Positions 2,404 to 38,003 of a stretch of DNA of 53,659 nt are shown here, piece after piece. The translations under genes were made by a program, and so were the position numbers. The DNA is from a virus. Its lineage: Duplodnaviria; Caudoviricetes. Numbering within the stretch: the first letter of the stretch is position 1; the number at the start of each line of letters is the position of its first letter. The DNA lies in the IMG/VR virus record IMGVR_UViG_3300005259_000078, positions 1 to 53,659 of that record; one strand, given 5' to 3'. Under the pieces are notes generated by a model. That model was given only the letters and a program-made list of their open reading frames with translations. It had not been told where the DNA came from and did no database searches.

Positions 2404-2431
2404 TTGAGAAAATTTGCTGATGTGATAGATT
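2404..2431 (+). promoter_or_regulatory. putative sigma70 promoter for the structured RNA
   Basis: TTGAGA-N16-TAGATT with TGn extended -10. Confidence 0.4.
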
Positions 2432-2437
2432 AAGCGC

Positions 2438-2661
2438 GCTGTGCTATCACCACAGCCGACGTTACGACGGGTTCACCAAACCCCTGCGAAACGAACAGTC
2501 TACCCCCTGTATGGGGGGAGGGTGTTTTGTTCTGGTGGACTTGGTCGTAACGATAGCCGGTACCGGGTGGTGCTGGCCGGTGACAAAGGGTGATAGCCTT
2601 TTCGTTACGGCCTTCTTGTAACAATGTGTTGCGAGGAGGTTGGCGGATCTCCTCGCGGCAC
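2438..2661 (+). ncRNA. putative structured non-coding RNA
   Basis: Helices 2443-2451/2589-2597, 2460-2478/2533-2552, 2556-2564/2569-2577, 2604-2622 and 2626-2638/2649-2661; most non-Watson-Crick positions are G-U only on the + strand. Confidence 0.5.
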
Positions 2662-2682: not shown

Positions 2683-3885
2683 CTACTTGATTTTATCAAC
2701 CATTTCAATGCGCATTCCCAGCCATCTCATAACATTGACACATTGACTGTTGCCGCATGTTTTATATCTGGGCCCGTCAGGACAATCTGCGGCTGGTTTG
2801 CCTTTCCATGATATTCTTGTGTGATCGTCAGGGAAGCCCATCAGACGTTCACATTCAACAGGAGTTAACTTTCTGACGGTATGCTTAGCGCTGATTGCTG
2901 GGATTATTGATCCTCCGCTTTCTCCGCCGCTTCTAAGCGTTGGTGCCAGGTTATTGGCCCAATCGTTACCCGCATCGTTTTTGGTGAAACAACAAACTCC
3001 ATGAGTACCGATTGTGTTTAGCGTAAACTGCACATCTTCATTTATTCCGCTTCCGTTGCCGCCATTTTGGGGCAATCGTCCGATTATATTTTCCGCAATG
3101 CCATAACTCTTTTGCAATGCGTTCAGAGGATTTCCATTCCCGTCGATGAAGGTTTGTTGCTGTTCTTTGCCGCTTGCTCCTCCAGTGCTCGCCGTAAGGC
3201 TTCTGGCAATACCCGTCCCCGCTTGACGGACCGGTGCAGTATTCCTTTGCAAGCAGTCTCGGTCAAATAATACTTTTGCGGCACGTTCCCAGCTTCCAAT
3301 ATATCCGATAACGAAGAGACGCCGTCTTCTTTGAGGGATTGCTCTTGGATATCCGGCCACTCGCGTGTACTGAGCGTCAAGCACTCTCCACGCCAAGCCG
3401 AATCCTCCTGGCGCCGGAGTAATGACTCCGGAGTTTTTCCAGCGTCTTGTTCCTTTTTTGTCGACGATCGGCACTTCGATTTCCCAGCCGCAGAGCAAGG
3501 ATAATAACCAGGCAAAATCTTTTCCCTGGTTGCTTGATAATACGCCTGGAACGTTTTCCCACAACAGCCAGCGGACGCCGGTTTCAAAAGCAAGTCTGGC
3601 GAATTCGCACGCAAGATTGCCGCGACGATCGGTGAGTCCGGTTCGTTTGCCGGCAATACTGAAAGATTGGCAGGGAGTCCCGCCAGTGAGTAGGTCAATT
3701 TTTCCACGATAAGTTTTTCCATTGATTTTGGTGAAGTCGCCAAGATTGGGCGTTTGAGGCCAGCGCGCCGCCAGTACTGATGCCGGAAAAGGCTCGATTT
3801 CGCTGTAGAATTCAGCGTCCCATCCGAGCGGTTTCCAGGCCAGCGTGGCAGCGTCGATTCCCGAACAGACGCTGCCGTATTTCAT
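2683..3885 (-). CDS. DNA cytosine-C5 methyltransferase
   Basis: SVCSGIDA (motif I), GGTPCQSFS (IV), WENVPG (VI), QRRRRLF (VIII), RKLTPVECERLMGFP (IX), GNS (X); ATG 3885 overlaps the upstream stop. Confidence 0.93.
   Translation of the reverse strand: MKYGSVCSGIDAATLAWKPLGWDAEFYSEIEPFPASVLAARWPQTPNLGDFTKINGKTYRGKIDLLTGGTPCQSFSIAGKRTGLTDRRGNLACEFARLAFETGVRWLLWENVPGVLSSNQGKDFAWLLSLLCGWEIEVPIVDKKGTRRWKNSGVITPAPGGFGLAWRVLDAQYTRVAGYPRAIPQRRRRLFVIGYIGSWERAAKVLFDRDCLQRNTAPVRQAGTGIARSLTASTGGASGKEQQQTFIDGNGNPLNALQKSYGIAENIIGRLPQNGGNGSGINEDVQFTLNTIGTHGVCCFTKNDAGNDWANNLAPTLRSGGESGGSIIPAISAKHTVRKLTPVECERLMGFPDDHTRISWKGKPAADCPDGPRYKTCGNSQCVNVMRWLGMRIEMVDKIK
3123..3743 (-). CDS. nested out-of-frame ORF, putative beta polypeptide of the C5 methyltransferase
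   Basis: 206-codon open alternative frame ending SLSDILE..VPQKYYLT..ACKGILHRSVKRGRVLP; start uncertain (TTG 3743 or ATG 3722). Confidence 0.5.
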   Translation of the reverse strand: MATSPKSMEKLIVEKLTYSLAGLPANLSVLPANEPDSPIVAAILRANSPDLLLKPASAGCCGKTFQAYYQATREKILPGYYPCSAAGKSKCRSSTKKEQDAGKTPESLLRRQEDSAWRGECLTLSTREWPDIQEQSLKEDGVSSLSDILEAGNVPQKYYLTETACKGILHRSVKRGRVLPEALRRALEEQAAKNSNKPSSTGMEIL

Positions 3886-4673
3886 GGTTGCGGCTCCTGA
3901 TAATTCCAGGTTAGGCATTCAGTCTTGCGCTTACCGGCATTGTGCTTTCCGGAAACGGCGATCGGCTGATCGATGTCGCGCTGACGTATTCCTGGAAGAT
4001 CTCGCAGCGCATCAAGTTCCGGACACGGATAACTTGACATCAGCCAGCGCCCCTGCAGATCCGGCAGCAACTTTAAGAGCAGATAAAAGACATCCTTGCC
4101 CTTATTGTAGTGACCGCAATCGCTGTTTGCATATGGCGGATCCAGATAGTAGAACGTATCCGGCGAATCGTACTTCCGGATCACGTCCAGGGCATCGCGG
4201 CAGAAGATCTGCACGTGTTCAAATCTGGCGCCCAGTTCCCGGGTGAATTCGGCCTTGCGATTGAACGTGCATCTGGCTGGTTGGACCGTCTTGGCGAACG
4301 CAAATCCGCCGCAGATCGAATGACTGAAGCAGAGCTGCGCTTGCGCCCAGAAAGCCCAGGCGCGTTTTAGCTTAGTGTATCCAACCGGATTTTTGATGAT
4401 TTCTTTGGATTCCAGATAAGCGCGTTCGGCATGTAGCGTCCGCTGGATCATGCCCTGCAGCCGATCAAAATCGGACTTCATTACCTGGTAGAAGTTGGTG
4501 ACCATGTCCAGATTATCATTGATAACCTCGACCTCTGACTTTTGTTTCCCGAAGAACACGGCGCCGCCGCCGAAAAATGGTTCGGCGTAGATGCGGTGGT
4601 CTCCAGGGATCAGCGGCAGAATGTGCTTTAACATTCGTGTTTTGCCGCCGTAGTAGATGATTGGTGTCTTCAT
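3882..4673 (-). CDS. Dam-like (D12 class) N6-adenine DNA methyltransferase
   Basis: YYGGK, EPFFGGGAV, EVIND and YLDPPY motifs. Confidence 0.93.
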   Translation of the reverse strand: MKTPIIYYGGKTRMLKHILPLIPGDHRIYAEPFFGGGAVFFGKQKSEVEVINDNLDMVTNFYQVMKSDFDRLQGMIQRTLHAERAYLESKEIIKNPVGYTKLKRAWAFWAQAQLCFSHSICGGFAFAKTVQPARCTFNRKAEFTRELGARFEHVQIFCRDALDVIRKYDSPDTFYYLDPPYANSDCGHYNKGKDVFYLLLKLLPDLQGRWLMSSYPCPELDALRDLPGIRQRDIDQPIAVSGKHNAGKRKTECLTWNYQEPQP

Positions 4674-26826: not shown

Positions 26827-27006
26827 CTATATTTTTGAGTTCTGACCGGTCAATTTCTGGATCCTTTGTTTTCGACGGCGCCAGAAGATCAGATCCATCA
26901 CTGGCGCCAGAGTTACCAGGATTACCAGCCAGACCGGCAGCAGCGCGGCGCTGATCACGCATTCGCCAACCGTATCCAGTGCCATAAGGGTTTTGTTAAA
27001 TTTCAT
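26827..27006 (-). CDS. 59-aa membrane protein (not in ORF track)
   Basis: MKFNKTLMALDTVGECVISAALLPVWLVILVTLAPVMDLIFWRRRKQR...; GAGG RBS in the repeat. Confidence 0.55.
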   Translation of the reverse strand: MKFNKTLMALDTVGECVISAALLPVWLVILVTLAPVMDLIFWRRRKQRIQKLTGQNSKI

Positions 27007-27014
27007 TTATAAGA

Positions 27015-27059
27015 CCTCTTGTTTATGGATGTCTTGTGGTGTTAGAACCGCAGTTTTTT
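27015..27059. repeat. 45-bp direct repeat, copy 1
   Basis: Identical to 27538-27582. Confidence 0.9.
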
Positions 27060-27268: not shown

Positions 27269-27529
27269 TTATAGAACCTCCAGCTTTTTCAAAATCAGGT
27301 GAATTTTGCATTTTTCGCATACTTTGTAATTACACATAGCGCAATATTGACAGGCTCCATGCAGCGCCTCCAGCATTTCCGGAGCCGCGGCGATAAGGCG
27401 GGAATTATTTACCGCCCGCATTGTTCCTGCCGGTTCACATGTGGCGATCAGACTTAATTTTTCATCAGTTTCAGTTACCAGTCCTAGACGATCATTATAG
27501 CGCCACGGCCCCGGAGTAAAATTAATCAT
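27269..27529 (-). CDS. conserved phage early protein
   Basis: FTPGPW...RLIAAAPEMLEAL motif. Confidence 0.7.
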   Translation of the reverse strand: MINFTPGPWRYNDRLGLVTETDEKLSLIATCEPAGTMRAVNNSRLIAAAPEMLEALHGACQYCAMCNYKVCEKCKIHLILKKLEVL

Positions 27530-27537
27530 TTTTAAGG

Positions 27538-27582
27538 CCTCTTGTTTATGGATGTCTTGTGGTGTTAGAACCGCAGTTTTTT
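27538..27582. repeat. 45-bp direct repeat, copy 2
   Basis: Identical to 27015-27059. Confidence 0.9.
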
Positions 27583-33797: not shown

Positions 33798-34267
33798 TTT
33801 TTCTGGTCGTAAACACCGGATTCGCACGCCAGGACAAATTCTTCAGTCAGGCGCTTCATGACTTCCCATCGAGCGCGGATCTTGGCCCCTTCATCTTTGG
33901 AGATGGAGAGGTCGGATTCTGCCTTGCTGATCTCGTCGATGACCGCAGCGAAATCACGGAGGATTTCCGCAACCTGCTTTATGATCGGTTCCTGCCCGGC
34001 TCGAATCGCTGGATTTTTGACCAGGATGCAGCCGAATTCCTCGGCCATGTATTCCAGCAGCGTTAGTTTTCCGGTCTGGCTTTCGACCGCTTCCATGAAA
34101 GACATGACTCGGTCAAGAAAATTCGGTGTTTTGCCTTTGGGCTGATATGGAAGTTCTCCGGCAACTTGATTGTTCAGACTGCCGATTGCCATTTGCATTG
34201 CGTTAGCAACTGCCGGGCGGTGACATCCTTTCAGTGCATTCTTTACAGCCTGTTGAGTTGTTTTCAT
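33794..34267 (-). CDS. phage regulatory protein CII/YmfL-like
   Basis: HTH N-terminus, LEYMAEEFG, D..IS..E..KI; start 34267 with GGAG RBS. Confidence 0.65.
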   Translation of the reverse strand: MKTTQQAVKNALKGCHRPAVANAMQMAIGSLNNQVAGELPYQPKGKTPNFLDRVMSFMEAVESQTGKLTLLEYMAEEFGCILVKNPAIRAGQEPIIKQVAEILRDFAAVIDEISKAESDLSISKDEGAKIRARWEVMKRLTEEFVLACESGVYDQKK

Positions 34268-34773
34268 TGAATGGTCTCCTGGGGGAATAGATATGGCTGG
34301 TTGTCGTTGGCCTTGGCAATTTTGCAGGAACGAAAGTGCGGCATGACCGGAATCAGTCTGCGCAGTCCGGTTTTTTCGCTGATCTCGCCGTAATTCGCTT
34401 CCTGAATGATGCGCCGGACGAAATCGATCTTGTCTTCGTCGGAACGTTGGGAAAGATAAAAGCCGTGTTGACGGATTGACGGCAACACTTCCGACGTGAC
34501 CCATTTGCGGAATTTTTTCGCTTCCGGTTTCCGGGATTGGAAGATCAGATGATAAAGCCCGGATTCGTTGACAAACCACATGGATCGGCGTTGACCTGAC
34601 CGGAATACTGTTCCGGTCAGCTTTTCGTCGTCATCAAGTGATTGGACTGCTTTTCTGGCATCAGTCAATCCCAGAATATCGCAGACGTCTTTGGCTGCAA
34701 AAAGTGCTTGATGAGTGTCGTCAAGTCGTGTTTGTAAATCCCGTCCGTCATAATTGAAGATCTTGTCAAGCAT
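34264..34773 (-). CDS. Bro-N antirepressor
   Basis: FAAKDVCDILG, VNESGLYHLIFQSRKPEAKKFRKWVTSEVLPSIR. Confidence 0.92.
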   Translation of the reverse strand: MLDKIFNYDGRDLQTRLDDTHQALFAAKDVCDILGLTDARKAVQSLDDDEKLTGTVFRSGQRRSMWFVNESGLYHLIFQSRKPEAKKFRKWVTSEVLPSIRQHGFYLSQRSDEDKIDFVRRIIQEANYGEISEKTGLRRLIPVMPHFRSCKIAKANDNQPYLFPQETIQ

Positions 34774-34863
34774 TTTCACTCCCCTCTTGATTCGAACATG
34801 ATGATTTTTTAGTATTTATTTCATTAACTTGGTTCATTGCGCAATAATCTCCTTGTTTAAGTT

Positions 34864-34921
34864 GCCGGTTCTCCGGGTTGCGATCCCGGAGAATCGGCGT
34901 GGTACTGGGTGGTGCTGGTAC
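34864..34921. promoter_or_regulatory. hairpins in the antirepressor leader
   Basis: GCCGGTTCTCCGGG/CCCGGAGAATCGGC stem, then GGTACTGGGTGGTGCTGG matching 2559-2576. Confidence 0.55.
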
Positions 34922-35006
34922 TTGGGGATGATTCTAAGGTGAAGCTTTCAGCTTGTGTTTTTGTTGTCGTGCAGTCACTGTTAAGTCATATGAAAAAAAT
35001 GACTAA

Positions 35007-35165
35007 TTAACAACTTGACTTGGATGATATTTTACAATGTTCTTTATTTATGATAATTGATAGCTGTTGAGCCGGGGTTCGTTTCTGGATACGTGCAATA
35101 ACTCTAAGCTTTTCTCGGTCAATCTTGTTTGACGGTAGTGTGCAATACTCTTCATTCTTAGACAT
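35007..35165 (-). CDS. 52-aa Cro/Cox-position regulator, ribbon-helix-helix-like (not in ORF track)
   Basis: MSKNEEYCTLPSNKIDREKLRVIARIQKRTPAQQLSIIINKEH...; AAGGAG RBS; divergent from cI. Confidence 0.65.
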   Translation of the reverse strand: MSKNEEYCTLPSNKIDREKLRVIARIQKRTPAQQLSIIINKEHCKISSKSSC

Positions 35166-35193
35166 ATAAAAACTCCTTAAATGGGTGGTGTAT

Positions 35194-35281
35194 TAAGACT
35201 ATAATTAGTCTTATGACCAAATCAAGACCAGTTTTATAAAAAACTATAGAATTTTATAAAATTATGGGTGATTTTATGACT
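35194..35281. promoter_or_regulatory. genetic-switch operators
   Basis: Palindrome TAAGACT-N6-AGTCTTA (35194-35213) plus TATGACC, CAAGACC and TATGACT half-sites; related AGTCAT/ATGACT pair at 34984-35004. Confidence 0.55.
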
Positions 35282-35298
35282 AAACATAGGGAAAGCTT

Positions 35299-36132
35299 AT
35301 GCCGACGATAGCTCTAAAAATTATTTACGATGCCATAAAAATGGCAGTTGAGGAATGTGGCTCTGAAAGTGAATTGGCTAGACGTTGTAACCTTGAGCCC
35401 AAAGTTATTAACCGTTATATGAATAATAAGGTAAAACGAATTACTGAGGAAAAATGGTTAAAGCTTGAGCCTCATGTTAAGAGGTTTTTGCCTGCAAATT
35501 TGGATTGCGAGTGCATTGGCTTTGCTGTTAAACGTGAACCACAGCCTCAAATACTATCGTCTAAAATGATAAGCCGCGTTATGTTGGATGTCTTTGATCA
35601 ACTTGACTCCGATGCACAGCATGAGATTATAAAGCAAGCGGAGCAGTATTTGACGAAGCAGCAGATTGACCGCAACGAAACATTGATGCAGGAAGAAGAT
35701 GAGAAGTTGGTCGGTTTTGGTATTACTTGCCGTTACAATACTGAATATCGGTTTACAACGCAGGGGCTATGCTGGCTGTACAATGGGATTGAATATAATA
35801 AAAAGCATGGAGAACTCCTGACGGTGGCTTTGCTGAAAAAGCTGTTGCAGTCCGAGCCTCCGGTTAGTCACCGGCGAAAACTGTGTATTCGGGCGCTTGC
35901 GGTTGAGGTTGACCGCGACGAAATATATTATCAATATGCTTTCTATCTTAATGGTACGCCGCCCAAGCTTTATACGGCGGGATTTGATAAGACCTATCGT
36001 CTGACGGATCATTTCGAATTTTATCCGACACTTAAAGCTCCGTTCGGAGTTGACGATGAATCTTATGTGGAAGTTTTCTTTACGTCTGAAGAAATCGCTG
36101 AGTTAAAAGCCGGAAAAACTCTGAAAATTTAA
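35299..36132 (+). CDS. CI-like repressor (N-terminal HTH, unrecognised C-terminal domain)
   Basis: GSESELARRCNLEPKVINRY HTH; position divergent from early genes. Confidence 0.7.
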   Translation: MPTIALKIIYDAIKMAVEECGSESELARRCNLEPKVINRYMNNKVKRITEEKWLKLEPHVKRFLPANLDCECIGFAVKREPQPQILSSKMISRVMLDVFDQLDSDAQHEIIKQAEQYLTKQQIDRNETLMQEEDEKLVGFGITCRYNTEYRFTTQGLCWLYNGIEYNKKHGELLTVALLKKLLQSEPPVSHRRKLCIRALAVEVDRDEIYYQYAFYLNGTPPKLYTAGFDKTYRLTDHFEFYPTLKAPFGVDDESYVEVFFTSEEIAELKAGKTLKI

Positions 36133-36152
36133 CCTTTTACGACTTTTTCATT

Positions 36153-36866
36153 ATGAATAACAACATTGTTTCAAAAATACGTAATATACCTGTAGAAAAT
36201 TTATCCCTGGAAGACAAACGGAATATTGGTTGCTTGGTAGCAATTTTTTCTTTTATCCCAGGTCTTGGACATGTTATTCAGCGCCGGTACATTGCTGGAT
36301 TCTTGTGGTTTGTTGCAGTCTCAATTGGTTATTGTTTTGTAATTCCGGGCCTAGTTTTGCATTTTTTATGTTTAGGACACGCTATAGTTAAGTTCAAATT
36401 GACCAAAGAGGAAGAGCAAACATTGAGGACACATCGTCAAGCTCTCATTTTCCAACCCAAGCCCAAATCTGCAGCGAATCAGAAAAGACAAGATGAAATA
36501 ATTGAACGAATAAAAGTGGCTGATGCCAACCGCGAAAAAATTGCATTAGAATATTATGAAAGACATAATATTGCCACTCGCAAAATCCCCAAAGGAATAG
36601 ACGTTTTATGGCTCGAAAAACCTGTAATCATCAGTTTTAGATATACATCAATGGAAACTGAGGATAAATTGCGAACGATTGGAGCATATTTGATCTACTC
36701 CGATGGATATAATAAATTTATTCAAGGCTATTGCTTTTGGCGTAATGACGAACGGACGTTTAAGCTGGAACGAATTGATGGCCATATTCGTGATTTAAAA
36801 GACAATAAAACGTATTCTCCTGACTGGTGGGTCAGCCAAATGGTATGTTCAGCAACGGAGGATTGA
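36153..36866 (+). CDS. membrane protein with C-terminal WYL-like domain
   Basis: Hydrophobic FIPGLGH N-terminus; FRY...R.I...GYCFWRNDERTFKLERI. Confidence 0.7.
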   Translation: MNNNIVSKIRNIPVENLSLEDKRNIGCLVAIFSFIPGLGHVIQRRYIAGFLWFVAVSIGYCFVIPGLVLHFLCLGHAIVKFKLTKEEEQTLRTHRQALIFQPKPKSAANQKRQDEIIERIKVADANREKIALEYYERHNIATRKIPKGIDVLWLEKPVIISFRYTSMETEDKLRTIGAYLIYSDGYNKFIQGYCFWRNDERTFKLERIDGHIRDLKDNKTYSPDWWVSQMVCSATED

Positions 36867-36868
36867 CA

Positions 36869-37924
36869 ATGGCTTTGCGATTAATCGGCGAAATATGGCA
36901 TGCGTACTATAGAAATGAACACGGCAAATTAGTGACGCGGTCGACCGGGAACACGGTCAAAACGGAAGCGGCAAAGATTGAACGCATTCTAATGCGTGAA
37001 ACCAGAGTAAAACGGGCCAGAGTCCGCTTGGGGTTGGCACCAGCCTTGCTGGAATCAGATAAAAAGAACAGTCATAAGCATAGTCGGCGCTTAAAGCTGG
37101 CCGACGCACTGGAGGCAGCGGCAAAATACAAGCCGATCGGAGAAACCGCCATAAAGCACTGGCGGCGATTTGTTAAAAACATGCCCTATCGCTATATGGA
37201 TGAAATCACGCCTCAGATTGCCTATAACTATCTGGACCAGCAATATGGCGGCGATGATCACGGAAAGACTTTTAATAACAACCGTTGCAGTCTAAATCGC
37301 ATTTTTCAATTGCTACGCCTTGATTCAGGCATCGACAACTCACCGTTTGACAAAGTTCCCATGCGACAATTTTCGCCAATCGGATTTAGACCATTTTCAG
37401 AGCAAGAGTTCATACTAATCTTCAAATCATCAACATTGCTATGGAAAACAGCAGAATTGATTGCGTGGCATACCGGACTGCGCGAATGCGACTGTCACGC
37501 AATAGGCGAATCCAATATCAAGGATGGCGGGATTTCCTGGTTGCCAGGCAAAACCGCACGATTTAAACGCAAAGTATGGGTTCCTGTTAAAGATCAACTC
37601 CGGCGATGGCTGGATAAATTACCGCCATCGCTTGATGGCCGTTTCTGCGGTTTTGAGCCGGATTCAAGAGATAGTAATGAATTTGAAACCTATTTCACCA
37701 GACTGCTTGAACAACTCGGGATCAAAGACAACGAGGATGGACAGGTCGGGTTTCCCAGTATTAGAAAATCTTTCGTTACCAGGTTAGATGAAGCACATAT
37801 TGCGCGGCACGCCATTCGCGGCATGGTCGGTCATGTCAGTGACGATCAAACTGACGATTATTCCTTTGACCGCCAATCAGCCAAGAAAATCCTGGAGCTG
37901 CCAGATCCGGAACTAGGCCTCTAA
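36869..37924 (+). CDS. int: prophage tyrosine integrase
   Basis: TGLR, SIRK, VGH, Y; adjacent to attR; GGAGG RBS. Confidence 0.88.
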   Translation: MALRLIGEIWHAYYRNEHGKLVTRSTGNTVKTEAAKIERILMRETRVKRARVRLGLAPALLESDKKNSHKHSRRLKLADALEAAAKYKPIGETAIKHWRRFVKNMPYRYMDEITPQIAYNYLDQQYGGDDHGKTFNNNRCSLNRIFQLLRLDSGIDNSPFDKVPMRQFSPIGFRPFSEQEFILIFKSSTLLWKTAELIAWHTGLRECDCHAIGESNIKDGGISWLPGKTARFKRKVWVPVKDQLRRWLDKLPPSLDGRFCGFEPDSRDSNEFETYFTRLLEQLGIKDNEDGQVGFPSIRKSFVTRLDEAHIARHAIRGMVGHVSDDQTDDYSFDRQSAKKILELPDPELGL

Positions 37925-37927
37925 AAA

Positions 37928-37947
37928 GTATGTAAAAAAGTATGTAA
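37928..37947 (+). promoter_or_regulatory. putative integrase arm-type sites (GTATGTAA x2)
   Basis: Same motif and 12-bp period as 2012-2043. Confidence 0.7.
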
Positions 37948-37969
37948 CAATGATTAATTGTGCTTGAAA

Positions 37970-38003
37970 TGTGGGTTCGAATCCCACCTTCGGCACCATT
38001 TTT
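37970..38003 (+). repeat. attR core
   Basis: Exact copy of 1934-1967. Confidence 0.95.

Follow-up and report, generated by a model that had tools for sequence, protein, structure and literature searches.

A predicted small-RNA gene at the attL end of a Lentisphaeria prophage, its undescribed RNA family, and a possible pairing site in an antirepressor leader

A structured RNA gene almost certainly lies at the attL end of the prophage studied here and, judged by covariance-model comparison, belongs to an undescribed RNA family of Lentisphaeria phages that has 26 members. The window, namely the whole stretch of 53,659 nucleotides analysed, contains a prophage of ~36 kb in a tRNA-Leu gene of a Lentisphaeria host. 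The attachment sites attL (1934-1967) and attR (37970-38003) are an exact 34 bp repeat, and attL overlaps the 3' end of tRNA-Leu(CAG) (1877-1962, + strand). The predicted small-RNA gene of the prophage occupies 2436-2676 on the + strand, with its own promoter and terminator, and faces two convergent DNA methyltransferase genes (2683-4673, - strand), one for a C5-cytosine enzyme (2683-3918) and one for a Dam-like enzyme (3882-4673).

An earlier note on this DNA had described a plausible promoter followed by a fold whose G-U pairs favour the + strand, and a structured + strand RNA gene with its own promoter is supported on both counts. The promoter (2404-2431, + strand) has a TTGAGA -35 hexamer, a 16-nt spacer and a TAGATT -10 hexamer preceded by TG. 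When both strands of 2404-2661 were folded, the + strand gave -118.8 kcal/mol with a z-score of -6.35 (none of 200 shuffles equalled it), compared with -86.7 kcal/mol and a z-score of -3.81 for the - strand. The covariance-model match extends over 2436-2623 and is followed by an intrinsic terminator (2625-2676, + strand), made of a 17-pair hairpin (2625-2662) plus a U-rich tail and pointing towards the end of the C5 methyltransferase gene, whose stop codon is at 2683. The gene has the general features of a trans-acting small RNA, its own predicted promoter and an intrinsic terminator. The promoter hexamers and the terminator are kept in the first two homologues found, and the spacers diverge. 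The terminator loop differs in these two homologues, so the likeness of neighbouring hairpin loops reported earlier (GTTGGCGGAT versus GTTGCGAT) is present but carries no weight.

No Rfam 15 family recognises this RNA. At the gathering score, tRNAs were the only matches for the whole window and for the homologue loci; the c4 model (RF01695) did not match 1960-2760 at E values up to 10, and c4 was also absent from nine homologue loci searched with Rfam at E values up to 1. Table 1 of PMC2864571 lists a single motif from Lentisphaerae, Acido-Lenti-1, whose Rfam model (RF01687) does not match this RNA. The portions of the literature returned by a search on Lentisphaerae prophage structured RNAs and on c4/antirepressor RNAs did not contain it either. 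Sequence searches were similarly unproductive: blastn of 1968-2700 found no match in a phage GenBank collection, 80 C5 methyltransferase-neighbour loci from IMG/VR had no blastn match to the RNA or the early region at E below 0.008, and two exact-pattern scans of viral contigs returned, respectively, two chance matches in the coding DNA of unrelated phages and none. A metagenome scan with the top of hairpin P3 (2559-2576, described below) found no stretch with both flanking family segments among the 80 listed of 99. Against 401 genomes of the host phylum, blastn of the RNA found only two true homologues together with chance matches in coding DNA; covariance models were needed for the remaining homologues. 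Two models, R1 and R2, were built from the first homologues and found 11 and 26 members, respectively. The window segment 2436-2623, whose sequence was among those used in building both models, scored 144.7 bits with R1 and 108.1 bits with R2, and independent members scored 30.9-108 bits and 40-63 bits.

Covariation in related prophages, a check proposed in the earlier note, strongly supports the RNA fold. In the alignment of 11 sequences (A4), 90.8% of the cells were paired under the refined structure, against 78.2% in shuffled alignments and 30-50% with the partners slid, and double changes occurred at 29 of 51 pairs against 13.0 in shuffles; helix S, P0 and the refined P3 are absent from the model behind this alignment. 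In the alignment of all 26 sequences (A5), 91.6% of the cells were paired against 66.4% in shuffles, double changes were found at 36 of 38 pairs, and helix S covaried at 14 of 14 pairs. The stem sequences vary freely across the family in A5.

The predicted fold begins with a 5' hairpin, P0 (2438-2456, with the stem 2438-2442/2452-2456 and the loop 2443-2451, GCUAUCACC), followed by a short helix P2 carrying the P2a hairpin GGGU[UCACCAA]ACCC (2469-2483), whose loop at 2473-2479 contains ACCA. Helix S, of 10-14 bp in the family, pairs 2543-2553 with 2602-2612 (UCGUUACGGCC) and has a duplex energy of -18.8 kcal/mol in the window; it closes a three-way junction bearing hairpins P3 and P4. P3 (2556-2581, GCCGG-UA-CCGG[GUGGUG]CUGG-CCGGU) is laid out, according to the covariation, as an outer stem (2556-2560/2577-2581), a UA bulge (2561-2562), an inner stem (2563-2566/2573-2576) and a GUGGUG loop (2567-2572), and is stable at -15.9 kcal/mol. 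The 18-mer 2559-2576, presented earlier as a hairpin in itself, does top the real P3 hairpin, but covariation shows that the shape then drawn was wrong. P4 (2585-2602) has its loop at 2589-2597 (GGUGAUAGC). All these elements lie on the + strand. Two other readings were dropped as more sequences were added: an RNAalifold version of P3 with 9 bp and a GGGU loop, which the refined P3 replaced with a better fit, and a nested helix P1, which fitted less well than kissing between P0 and P4. An alternative helix between segments seg1 and seg2 is strong in 5 of 11 members and weak in six, with 76% paired on an alignment fitted to it, and is retained only as a possible switch.

Two long-range loop contacts give the family an unusual architecture, in which K1 is hypervariable and K2 is almost invariant. 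K1 joins the P0 loop with the P4 loop over 6-9 bp, and its sequence is unique to each member. In A4, K1 shows double changes at 9 of 9 pairs and is 99% paired. Across the 26 members, the mean energy of the P0-loop/P4-loop duplex is -11.4 kcal/mol for cognate loops against -3.6 kcal/mol for non-cognate ones, and the cognate P4 loop ranks first in 20; this holds for the window RNA, whose GCUAUCACC and GGUGAUAGC form a duplex of -14.6 kcal/mol. Second copies of each phage's P0-loop sequence were only scattered 8-9-mers at the chance rate. The loops of K2, ACCA in P2a and GUGGUG in P3, are both invariant in A4, and among the 26 members GUGGUG is kept in 24 and ACCA in 25. The sole member without ACCA (L436) has changes in both loops, GUGGCG and GUGCCG, which are still able to pair. 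With this one co-change as support, we infer that the ACCA loop kisses the P3 GUGGUG loop in a compact fold, so that GUGGUG would probably be engaged within the RNA itself.

The members take two forms, an mRNA leader and a stand-alone gene, and the family thereby offers a natural system for the transition from a cis-acting leader to a trans-acting RNA. Fifteen of the 26 members are 5' leaders of phage mRNAs, with a promoter of the TTGACA-17-TATATT type 5-8 nt before the RNA (judged by eye) and, in all 15, a Shine-Dalgarno sequence and an ATG 15-35 nt past the model end. The ORFs behind these leaders are not one family by blastp and mostly have no Pfam or PHROG matches. The remaining 11 members, this phage's included, come from syntenic prophages, end in a terminator and have no ORF behind them; all 11 sit between attL and convergent methyltransferase genes, and a TTGA-type -35 and a TAnnnT -10 stand at the same place in every one (also by eye). 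This orphan form presumably acts as a free small RNA. In the leader form, duplexes between the P4 loop and the ribosome-binding-site region averaged -8.1 kcal/mol for cognate pairs and -6.4 kcal/mol for non-cognate pairs (one-sided Mann-Whitney p = 0.017), and the complementarity is strong in only 4-7 of the 15 leaders, where the P4 loop complements the stretch from Shine-Dalgarno to AUG, a stretch that repeats the P0 loop. Pairing of the P4 loop with the leader ribosome-binding site is suggestive and not general.

The earlier note had further claimed that the RNA matches a site 32 kb away in the leader of an antirepressor-like gene. The window scan confirms the match: GGTACCGGGTGGTGCTGG (2559-2576) and GGTACTGGGTGGTGCTGG (34901-34918), both read on the + strand, are identical at 17 of 18 positions. 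At up to three mismatches, the 18-mer occurs at these two window loci only (0.04 expected). In a comparison of all 18-mers of the RNA gene with both strands of the window, the sole locus at one mismatch or fewer was the one that we call site B (34901-34922, + strand; 18-mer copy 34901-34918), and 100 mononucleotide shuffles of the RNA gave a mean of 0.04 matches in the whole window. Because we estimate that ~2 pairs at 17 of 18 arise by chance somewhere in the 53.6 kb window, where similar repeats do occur, the match is notable for its position and not per se. As stated earlier, the + strand RNA is complementary over this 18-nt stretch to the - strand early transcript upstream of the Bro-N gene. 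This antirepressor-like gene (34264-34779, - strand, likely ATG at 34773; Pfam Bro-N 1.2e-24, PHROG anti-repressor Ant 8.8e-44) is preceded by a candidate upstream ORF of 23 codons (34766-34837, - strand) with a Shine-Dalgarno sequence AAGGAGA (34848-34854); the stop of this ORF overlaps the Bro-N start. The first small gene of the early operon (35007-35165, - strand) encodes 52 aa without a family match and has a promoter-like site upstream (35225-35198). The divergent operon (35299-37924, + strand) encodes a 277-aa protein (35299-36132), a WYL protein (36153-36866) and an integrase (36827-37924); the 277-aa protein, which matches YdaS-type proteins weakly at its N terminus, is a possible repressor. 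The 401 host-phylum genomes, searched by blastn with the early region (34740-35300), gave only chance-level short matches, and the related genome G001, whose contig ends before the early region, had no match to 34000-36500.

That site B is functionally linked to the RNA in some way seems to us somewhat better than an even bet, and that the link is specifically antisense pairing with the - strand leader is a tentative reading that we rate below that, although it is the likeliest of those considered for the duplicate. In this phage alone, the P3 top is repeated within the 227-nt leader that separates the first early gene from the upstream ORF and Bro-N gene. By the pairing mechanism, the GUGGUG loop of the RNA would meet a CACCAC loop exposed on the - strand early mRNA, and the contact would extend to the duplex of 17 of 18 positions, altering the leader fold and lowering expression of the antirepressor gene and of those that follow. 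The energetics are favourable: the duplex of the P3 top with site B reaches -37.0 kcal/mol against -17.1 kcal/mol when the two are folded apart, a gain of ~20 kcal/mol. The - strand of site B forms only 4 bp (-1.0 kcal/mol) with a 12-nt open loop containing CACCAC, and being nearly unstructured it should be accessible. In addition, the match is sharply bounded, loop-centred and located in a non-coding regulatory leader. Against the pairing stand the probable ACCA partner of the P3 loop, together with the stability of P3, and the position of site B, which lies ~50 nt upstream of the nearest Shine-Dalgarno sequence (34848-34854), covers no ribosome-binding site and has no - strand terminator after it (terminator scan of the - strand, 34700-35320).

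The + strand of site B raises a different reading. Here, an 8-bp hairpin GGUACUGG[GUGGUG]CUGGUACU of -8.5 kcal/mol forms, its stem completed by the flanks via three G-U pairs that are mismatches on the - strand; the adjoining 13-bp hairpin (34864-34896, + strand) likewise includes a G-U pair that turns into an A.C mismatch on the - strand. A better + strand hairpin is the pattern expected from selection on a + strand RNA and argues against - strand pairing. Site B might then work within a transcript across 34823-34970 that carries a P3-like GUGGUG hairpin and shares the partner of P3, which could be a loop-reading protein or, in trans, the RNA's own ACCA loop. The transcript could be a short antisense RNA from a weak promoter-like TTGATT-17-TAGTAT at 34787-34815 or a CII-like-driven establishment transcript running into the operon at 35299; a CP76/CII-type activator gene does lie downstream, and in phage 186, CII activates a promoter directed back across the early genes. 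Chance would seldom give an 8-bp stem around GTGGTG (estimated at ~0.375^8 per occurrence), GTGGTG hairpins of at least four pairs in ~250 kb of related prophage DNA are the P3s only, and the natural partner of the GUGGUG loop in the family appears to be the ACCA loop. We nevertheless consider this + strand function unlikely. The promoter at 34787-34815 is weak (8 of 12) and went unreported by the promoter scan, and the hairpin AAGCUUUCAGCUU with its U tract failed the terminator scan. The loop alone would suffice for such a role, yet 17 of 18 positions are identical, including the stem and the bulge, although the family's stems vary freely; furthermore, the UA that is bulged in P3 is paired at site B, which gives a different shape, and no relative has such a site.

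The distribution of site B bears on how far antisense pairing could extend beyond this phage. Nine other members of the orphan group were checked (complete G381, G404, G466, G261 and provirus G607; partial or whole-genome G001, G469, G471 and G237); all nine lack a Bro-N gene, and in no phage or non-coding context does any of them carry its own P3 top a second time. The single match at 16 of 18 (G469) falls within a host coding gene, and 11-mers of each phage's P3 top had second copies at the chance rate only. Among 80 Bro-N loci kept of 136 IMG/VR relatives, a GUGGUG hairpin is never found opposite the gene, and a single locus has one, of 4 bp, on the gene's own strand. The pair formed by the P3 top and site B is known from a single genome. 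Because this target is absent from the other members, the conserved function of the family cannot be to pair with the Bro-N leader. Of the trans-acting immunity RNA proposed earlier, the complementarity and energetics stand and the conserved family function does not; the pairing would be an add-on immunity link peculiar to one phage and not the ancestral job of the family. Since the family is kept in relatives without site B, the RNA has another job.

Site B may have nothing to do with the RNA, as a chance match or a short patch copied from P3, with the orphan RNA titrating a host or phage factor that acts on the leader members, or acting on host targets. This reading, to which we give a limited but real weight, gains from the uniqueness of the site to one of ten phages in the prophage group, from the shuffle control (0.04 matches per RNA, small yet not negligible) and from the other repeats at 17 of 18 that the window is expected to hold and does hold. 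It is harder to reconcile with a match that joins the RNA's most conserved hairpin to a non-coding regulatory stretch, of which the phage has few, with a copy that is embedded in a hairpin at site B too, and with similarity that drops to zero past the 18 nt, unlike the decayed remnant of a longer duplication.

There are both similarities and differences between this RNA and known phage RNAs. The c4 RNA has ~77 nt, and the c4 RNAs of P1 and P7 show matched changes in loop and target. These matched changes resemble the hypervariable matched K1 loops of the family, and the c4 order of decoy copy, antisense loop and real target is paralleled by P0, P4 and the ribosome-binding-site stretch in the same 4-7 of 15 leaders. 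Like the family, P1/P7 c4 with its a1/b1 and a2/b2 sites (RF01695; the c4-a1b1 motif as listed in Table 1 of PMC2864571) is a phage regulatory RNA that uses exposed hairpin loops. It is also tied to antirepressor expression, as proposed here: according to PMC8201110, the C4 antisense RNA regulates expression of Ant in P1. RNA control of antirepressor expression is an established theme. The family RNA differs in its size of ~190-240 nt, larger than c4, its three-way junction and its lack of a match to the c4 Rfam model. Moreover, c4 lies upstream in the transcript of the antirepressor operon and its loops pair with a site covering the ribosome-binding site, whereas here the RNA (2436-2676, + strand) and the Bro-N operon (34264-35165, - strand) are 32 kb apart and site B does not cover such a site.

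The CI RNA of phage P4 is a leader-derived immunity RNA complementary to repeated early-leader sites (seqA, seqB and seqC); in RNAs of this type, pairing causes termination at an intrinsic terminator within the leader. The family shows a comparable arrangement in five members, where seg1 and seg3 are alike and both complementary to seg2, but the seg1:seg2 pairing is weak in the other 6 of 11; unlike P4 CI, the RNA is not derived from the operon that it would control, and no intrinsic terminator follows site B. In P22, the sar RNA is a cis-antisense RNA against the ant leader. The proposed target is likewise the leader of an antirepressor gene, and a + strand RNA over site B would be the direct analogue of sar, but the gene at 2436-2676 lies in trans to that leader, with which its RNA has only 18 nt in common. 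If the remote pairing is real, an immunity RNA of a phage can be encoded outside the operon that it controls. The widest reading, which we regard as speculative and improbable, is a new riboregulator class with two loop contacts, in which K1 would serve as the specificity address, the P4 loop of the leader form would pair with either the P0 loop or the ribosome-binding site, and the orphans would be free-standing immunity RNAs, here with a remote target 32 kb away reached via the copy of the P3 top in the antirepressor leader. The family, which comes from a little-studied lineage of bacteria and from their phages, adds a structured RNA undetected by any Rfam 15 model, and the covariance models are usable for annotating these elements.

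The attL side of the RNA gene carries further conserved elements. An 18-nt element GAAGGCGGGGGGTGAGTG (2173-2190, + strand) shares GAGGCGGGG with the cosL end of P2 and is for this reason a candidate cos site; it lies upstream of the RNA in 10 of 11 orphan-group members by reading (nine by regular expression), and in the remaining one (L002) the contig ends before the element. The packaging RNA of phi29 is of similar size, lies near a genome end and has two mutually complementary hairpin loops. Our RNA is alike in its size, its complementary loops and, if the cos reading is right, its genome-end position, and one leader-type member (L424) lies between the large terminase and portal genes; it differs in that no Rfam match was found, that the phages here have ordinary large terminases and that most members lie elsewhere, as mRNA leaders. 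The conserved features might also act as DNA, with the region beside the cos-like element serving for packaging or recombination and the repeated GGTGGTGCTG motif binding a protein. The distance from the RNA gene to the element with the P2 cosL GAGGCGGGG is ~250 nt, GGTGGTGCTG occurs in P2 too, immediately inside cosL, and two dyads stand between the cos-like element and the RNA gene. We regard a DNA role as very improbable, for 36 of 38 helix positions covary, with G-U pairs on one strand only; a promoter plus a terminator or a ribosome-binding site flank all 26 members; 15 members have other surroundings altogether, with no cos-like element near; and the 10-mer shared with P2 has an estimated chance probability of ~0.05. 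Of the two dyads, which form hairpins on the + strand, GATAGGCCTCCTAGGCCGTCTAT (2221-2243) overlaps a promoter-like site (2219-2246) and GATAGGCGTCCTAAGCCGTCAAT (2366-2388) has its centre ~60 nt before the RNA begins. In every related phage the dyad is present twice in nearly identical form; the copies are confined to the RNA locus and vary in sequence between phages.

The window, an IMG/VR provirus record, opens in host DNA with recJ (1–1716, − strand) and a tRNA-Leu(CAG) gene (1877–1962, + strand); its RecJ shares 80% protein identity with that of a Lentisphaerae/Victivallales metagenome-assembled genome. The prophage spans ~36 kb and is bounded by an exact 34-bp repeat (1934–1967 and 37970–38003). 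Repeats of GTATGTAA(C) adjoin attL (2012–2046) and attR (37928–37950) and are likely arm-type integrase binding sites; similar repeats adjoin attL in relatives. Three + strand genes occupy the right end; they encode an integrase, a WYL protein and a 277-aa protein whose N terminus gives a weak YdaS-type match. Divergent from these, the − strand early operon begins with a 52-aa gene (35165–35007); a non-coding leader of 227 nt separates it from a Bro-N antirepressor-like gene (34779–34264), behind which come genes for a CP76/CII-like activator and a primase. The RNA gene is located at the left end, with attL on one side and two convergent DNA methyltransferase genes on the other. The prophage also contains a 57-nt direct repeat (27003–27059 and 27526–27582), whose copies are 96% identical and 523 nt apart.

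The promoter that the earlier note placed ahead of the RNA was recovered as a promoter-like TTGAGA-16-(TG)TAGATT at 2404–2431, which frames the RNA stretch together with a terminator-like hairpin of 17 pairs (2625–2662). Folding favoured the + strand, as had been claimed, with −118.8 kcal/mol (z −6.35) versus −86.7 kcal/mol (z −3.81) for the − strand. The 18-mer at 2559–2576 indeed recurs on the same strand at 34901–34918 (site B) with one mismatch and, with as many as three mismatches allowed, matches nothing else in the window. None of the other 18-mers of the RNA gene has a match anywhere in the window at up to one mismatch, and shuffled RNAs gave a mean of 0.04 such matches. By simple arithmetic, a window of such size should hold ~2 pairs of 17/18, so the weight of the match comes from its position rather than its existence. 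That site B and the RNA have no functional link seems to us somewhat doubtful.

Using blastn, we found one homologue of the RNA in the closest genome (G001) and one in G381, both in syntenic prophages between a tRNA-borne attL and methyltransferase genes. The three sequences share their promoter hexamers and terminator as well as several internal blocks; a conserved reading frame was ruled out by a 38-nt insertion in the window. A covariance model built from these three sequences (R1) found eight further members, with matches in 2/5 genomes of the G001 family, 5/151 of its order, 6/144 of the G381 family and one IMG/VR provirus. A second model (R2), based on 11 sequences and the structure as refined, found 15 more, with matches in 4/60 genomes of the G126 family and 11/151 of the class; in the phylum, 7/151 genomes matched without new members. 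These genome sets are samples, and the shortened calibration of both models makes their E-values rough. In four genomes the RNA occurs twice, in differing contexts: G440 (L424/L428), G447 (L425/L427), G042 (L434/L438) and G204 (L435/L437). Against Rfam 15, the window region gave no family match with an E limit of 10, nor was the RNA matched in the whole window at the gathering score or in any of nine homologue loci with an E limit of 1.

On three sequences, RNAalifold predicted a long-range helix whose strands are wholly different among the phages yet complementary. The fold obtained from 11 and then 26 sequences starts at the 5′ end with hairpin P0, followed by a short helix, P2, around hairpin P2a, and by a helix S of 10–14 bp closing a three-way junction from which hairpins P3 and P4 branch; it is the P0 and P4 loops that form the long-range helix (contact K1). 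Both alignments were generated by covariance models. In the 11-sequence alignment, made with a model that omitted P0, S and the refined P3, the 51 pairs were 90.8% paired, compared with 78.2% in shuffles and 30–50% with slid partners. Double changes occurred in 29 pairs versus 13.0 in shuffles (K1 9/9, P2a 4/4, S 7/14, P3 3/8). The 26-sequence alignment, which was fitted to R2 and hence is biased towards structure, had 91.6% of cells paired versus 66.4% shuffled, with double changes in 36/38 pairs. Cognate P0/P4 loop duplexes averaged −11.4 kcal/mol against −3.6 for non-cognate ones; the cognate partner ranked first in 20 of the 26 members, second in four, and sixth and eighth in the remaining two. 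A role of the conserved features at the DNA level is highly improbable. The loop motifs ACCA (P2a, 25/26 members) and GUGGUG (P3, 24/26) are complementary over 4–5 nt, a putative second contact (K2) without covariation in the 11-sequence alignment because both loops are invariant there. The one member lacking ACCA, L436, has GUGGCG in P2a, and its P3 loop is GUGCCG, so that pairing is still possible; with this single co-change, K2 is plausible.

The 11 first-found members belong to one prophage lineage with the order attL, RNA, convergent methyltransferase(s) and baseplate genes, and each ends in a hairpin and a U tract. The 15 found with R2 lie in other contexts, such as between the large terminase and portal genes (L424), ahead of a Rha-type antirepressor-like gene (L434), behind a KilAC antirepressor gene (L435) and behind DnaB-type helicase genes (L431, L432). 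By eye, all 15 have a TTGACA-17-TATATT-type promoter just ahead of the RNA and a Shine-Dalgarno with ATG ~15–35 nt past the model's end; judged from sequence, the RNA is a 5′ leader in these members. The genes behind the 15 leaders are not a single family by blastp. Leaders L429, L430 and L433 lie directly behind defence-type genes (RloB + AAA_21; a TIR-domain protein; a circularly permuted YpsA SLOG protein + nuclease). In some leaders, the P0 loop sequence recurs in the stretch from Shine-Dalgarno to AUG, and the complementarity of this stretch to the P4 loop amounts to 8 bp in L431, L435 and L438; in L430 the duplex has −12.3 kcal/mol. Such duplexes averaged −8.1 kcal/mol for cognate and −6.4 for non-cognate pairs (p 0.017), hinting at a selection by the P4 loop of either the P0 loop or the ribosome-binding site, though not a general one. 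Among orphan members, the terminator's 5′ strand (mostly GAGAAGAU) resembles, by eye, the ribosome-binding region of leaders.

The 18-mer corresponds to the top of P3: two outer-stem bases and the UA bulge, then both strands of the inner stem with the GUGGUG loop between them. Neither a second GUGGUG hairpin nor, in non-coding or phage context, a second copy of the own P3 top was found in the whole prophages of G381, G404, G466 and G261 or the complete-rated provirus G607, and neither occurs in the partial G001 and G469 or in whole-genome pattern searches of G471 and G237; a single 16/18 match (G469) falls within a host gene for a prepilin-type protein. The Bro-N gene is absent from all relatives checked for site B, and the early region of the window has no DNA relatives in 401 genomes. 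No GUGGUG hairpin lies opposite the Bro-N gene in the 80 Bro-N loci kept from IMG/VR. Of 99 matches to the P3 top in a metagenome scan, 80 were listed, and none of these 80 is flanked by both neighbouring segments typical of the family. As far as these sequences indicate, site B is not a family trait. Since the relatives lack both site B and Bro-N, pairing with the antirepressor leader, the immunity function put forward in the earlier note, cannot be the conserved role of the RNA.

In this phage itself, the leading though tentative reading is an antisense link, in which the GUGGUG-centred P3 top would pair with the − strand early leader at site B. The match has sharp limits and an exposed loop at its centre, and it falls in a regulatory leader; the − strand of site B is nearly unfolded (−1.0 kcal/mol), and the duplex of the two hairpin regions reaches −37.0 versus −17.1 kcal/mol apart. 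RNA control of antirepressors is well known, as passages of PMC8201110 indicate. However, the flanks of site B complete an 8-bp + strand hairpin via three G-U pairs, the neighbouring hairpin is likewise better on the + strand, P3 is stable and its loop probably already engaged, the nearest Shine-Dalgarno is ~50 nt away, and a terminator scan of the early leader found none behind site B. Alternatively, the + strand site B hairpin and P3 may have a common partner, which we consider unlikely. A + strand transcript through site B is conceivable from a weak TTGATT-17-TAGTAT (34787–34815), but this was seen by eye and falls under the promoter scan threshold; another conceivable source is a CII-activated promoter similar to that of phage 186. 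Across the family, P3 stem sequences differ freely, the loop-adjacent pair being G-C, A-U, C-G or U-A, so the 17/18 identity at site B is not needed for a mere look-alike hairpin.

The same early region contains a possible 23-codon upstream ORF (34766–34837, − strand) with a strong Shine-Dalgarno; the overlap of its stop with the start of Bro-N suggests translational coupling. At the start of this ORF, and overlapping it, is a perfect palindrome of 10 bp, ATTGCGCAAT (34834–34843), a candidate site for protein binding. An inverted repeat, AAGACTATAATTAGTCTT (35190–35215), separates the divergent early promoters and is a likely operator.

Between attL and the RNA gene, an element AAGGAGGCGGGGG(T/C)GAGTG (2173–2190) is conserved at the same place in nine relatives (e.g. 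~228–246 in L174) and has GAGGCGGGG in common with the cosL of phage P2, a 19-nt sequence (GGCGAGGCGGGGAAAGCAC). This element may be a cos site, in which case the RNA gene would occupy the extreme end of the virion DNA; its GTG as a start codon was ruled out by GCG in three relatives. Two near-identical hairpins or dyads (2221–2243 and 2366–2388), each followed by a T-rich run, precede the RNA promoter. Such dyad pairs are present in every relative, as in TACGGCTTGAGCCGTA then TATTTTAGG in G404, G469, G471, G237 and L002, and are confined to the RNA-gene locus in each phage; their sequence varies among phages with pairing kept, and they may serve as operators, as tandem terminators or in terminase binding. 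P2 DNA (L423) has GACGGTGGTGCTGA at 30–43 and TGCGGTGGTGAGCG at 122–135, just inside cosL; the former and the P3 hairpin have the 10-mer GGTGGTGCTG in common, with a random chance of ~0.05 by our own arithmetic.
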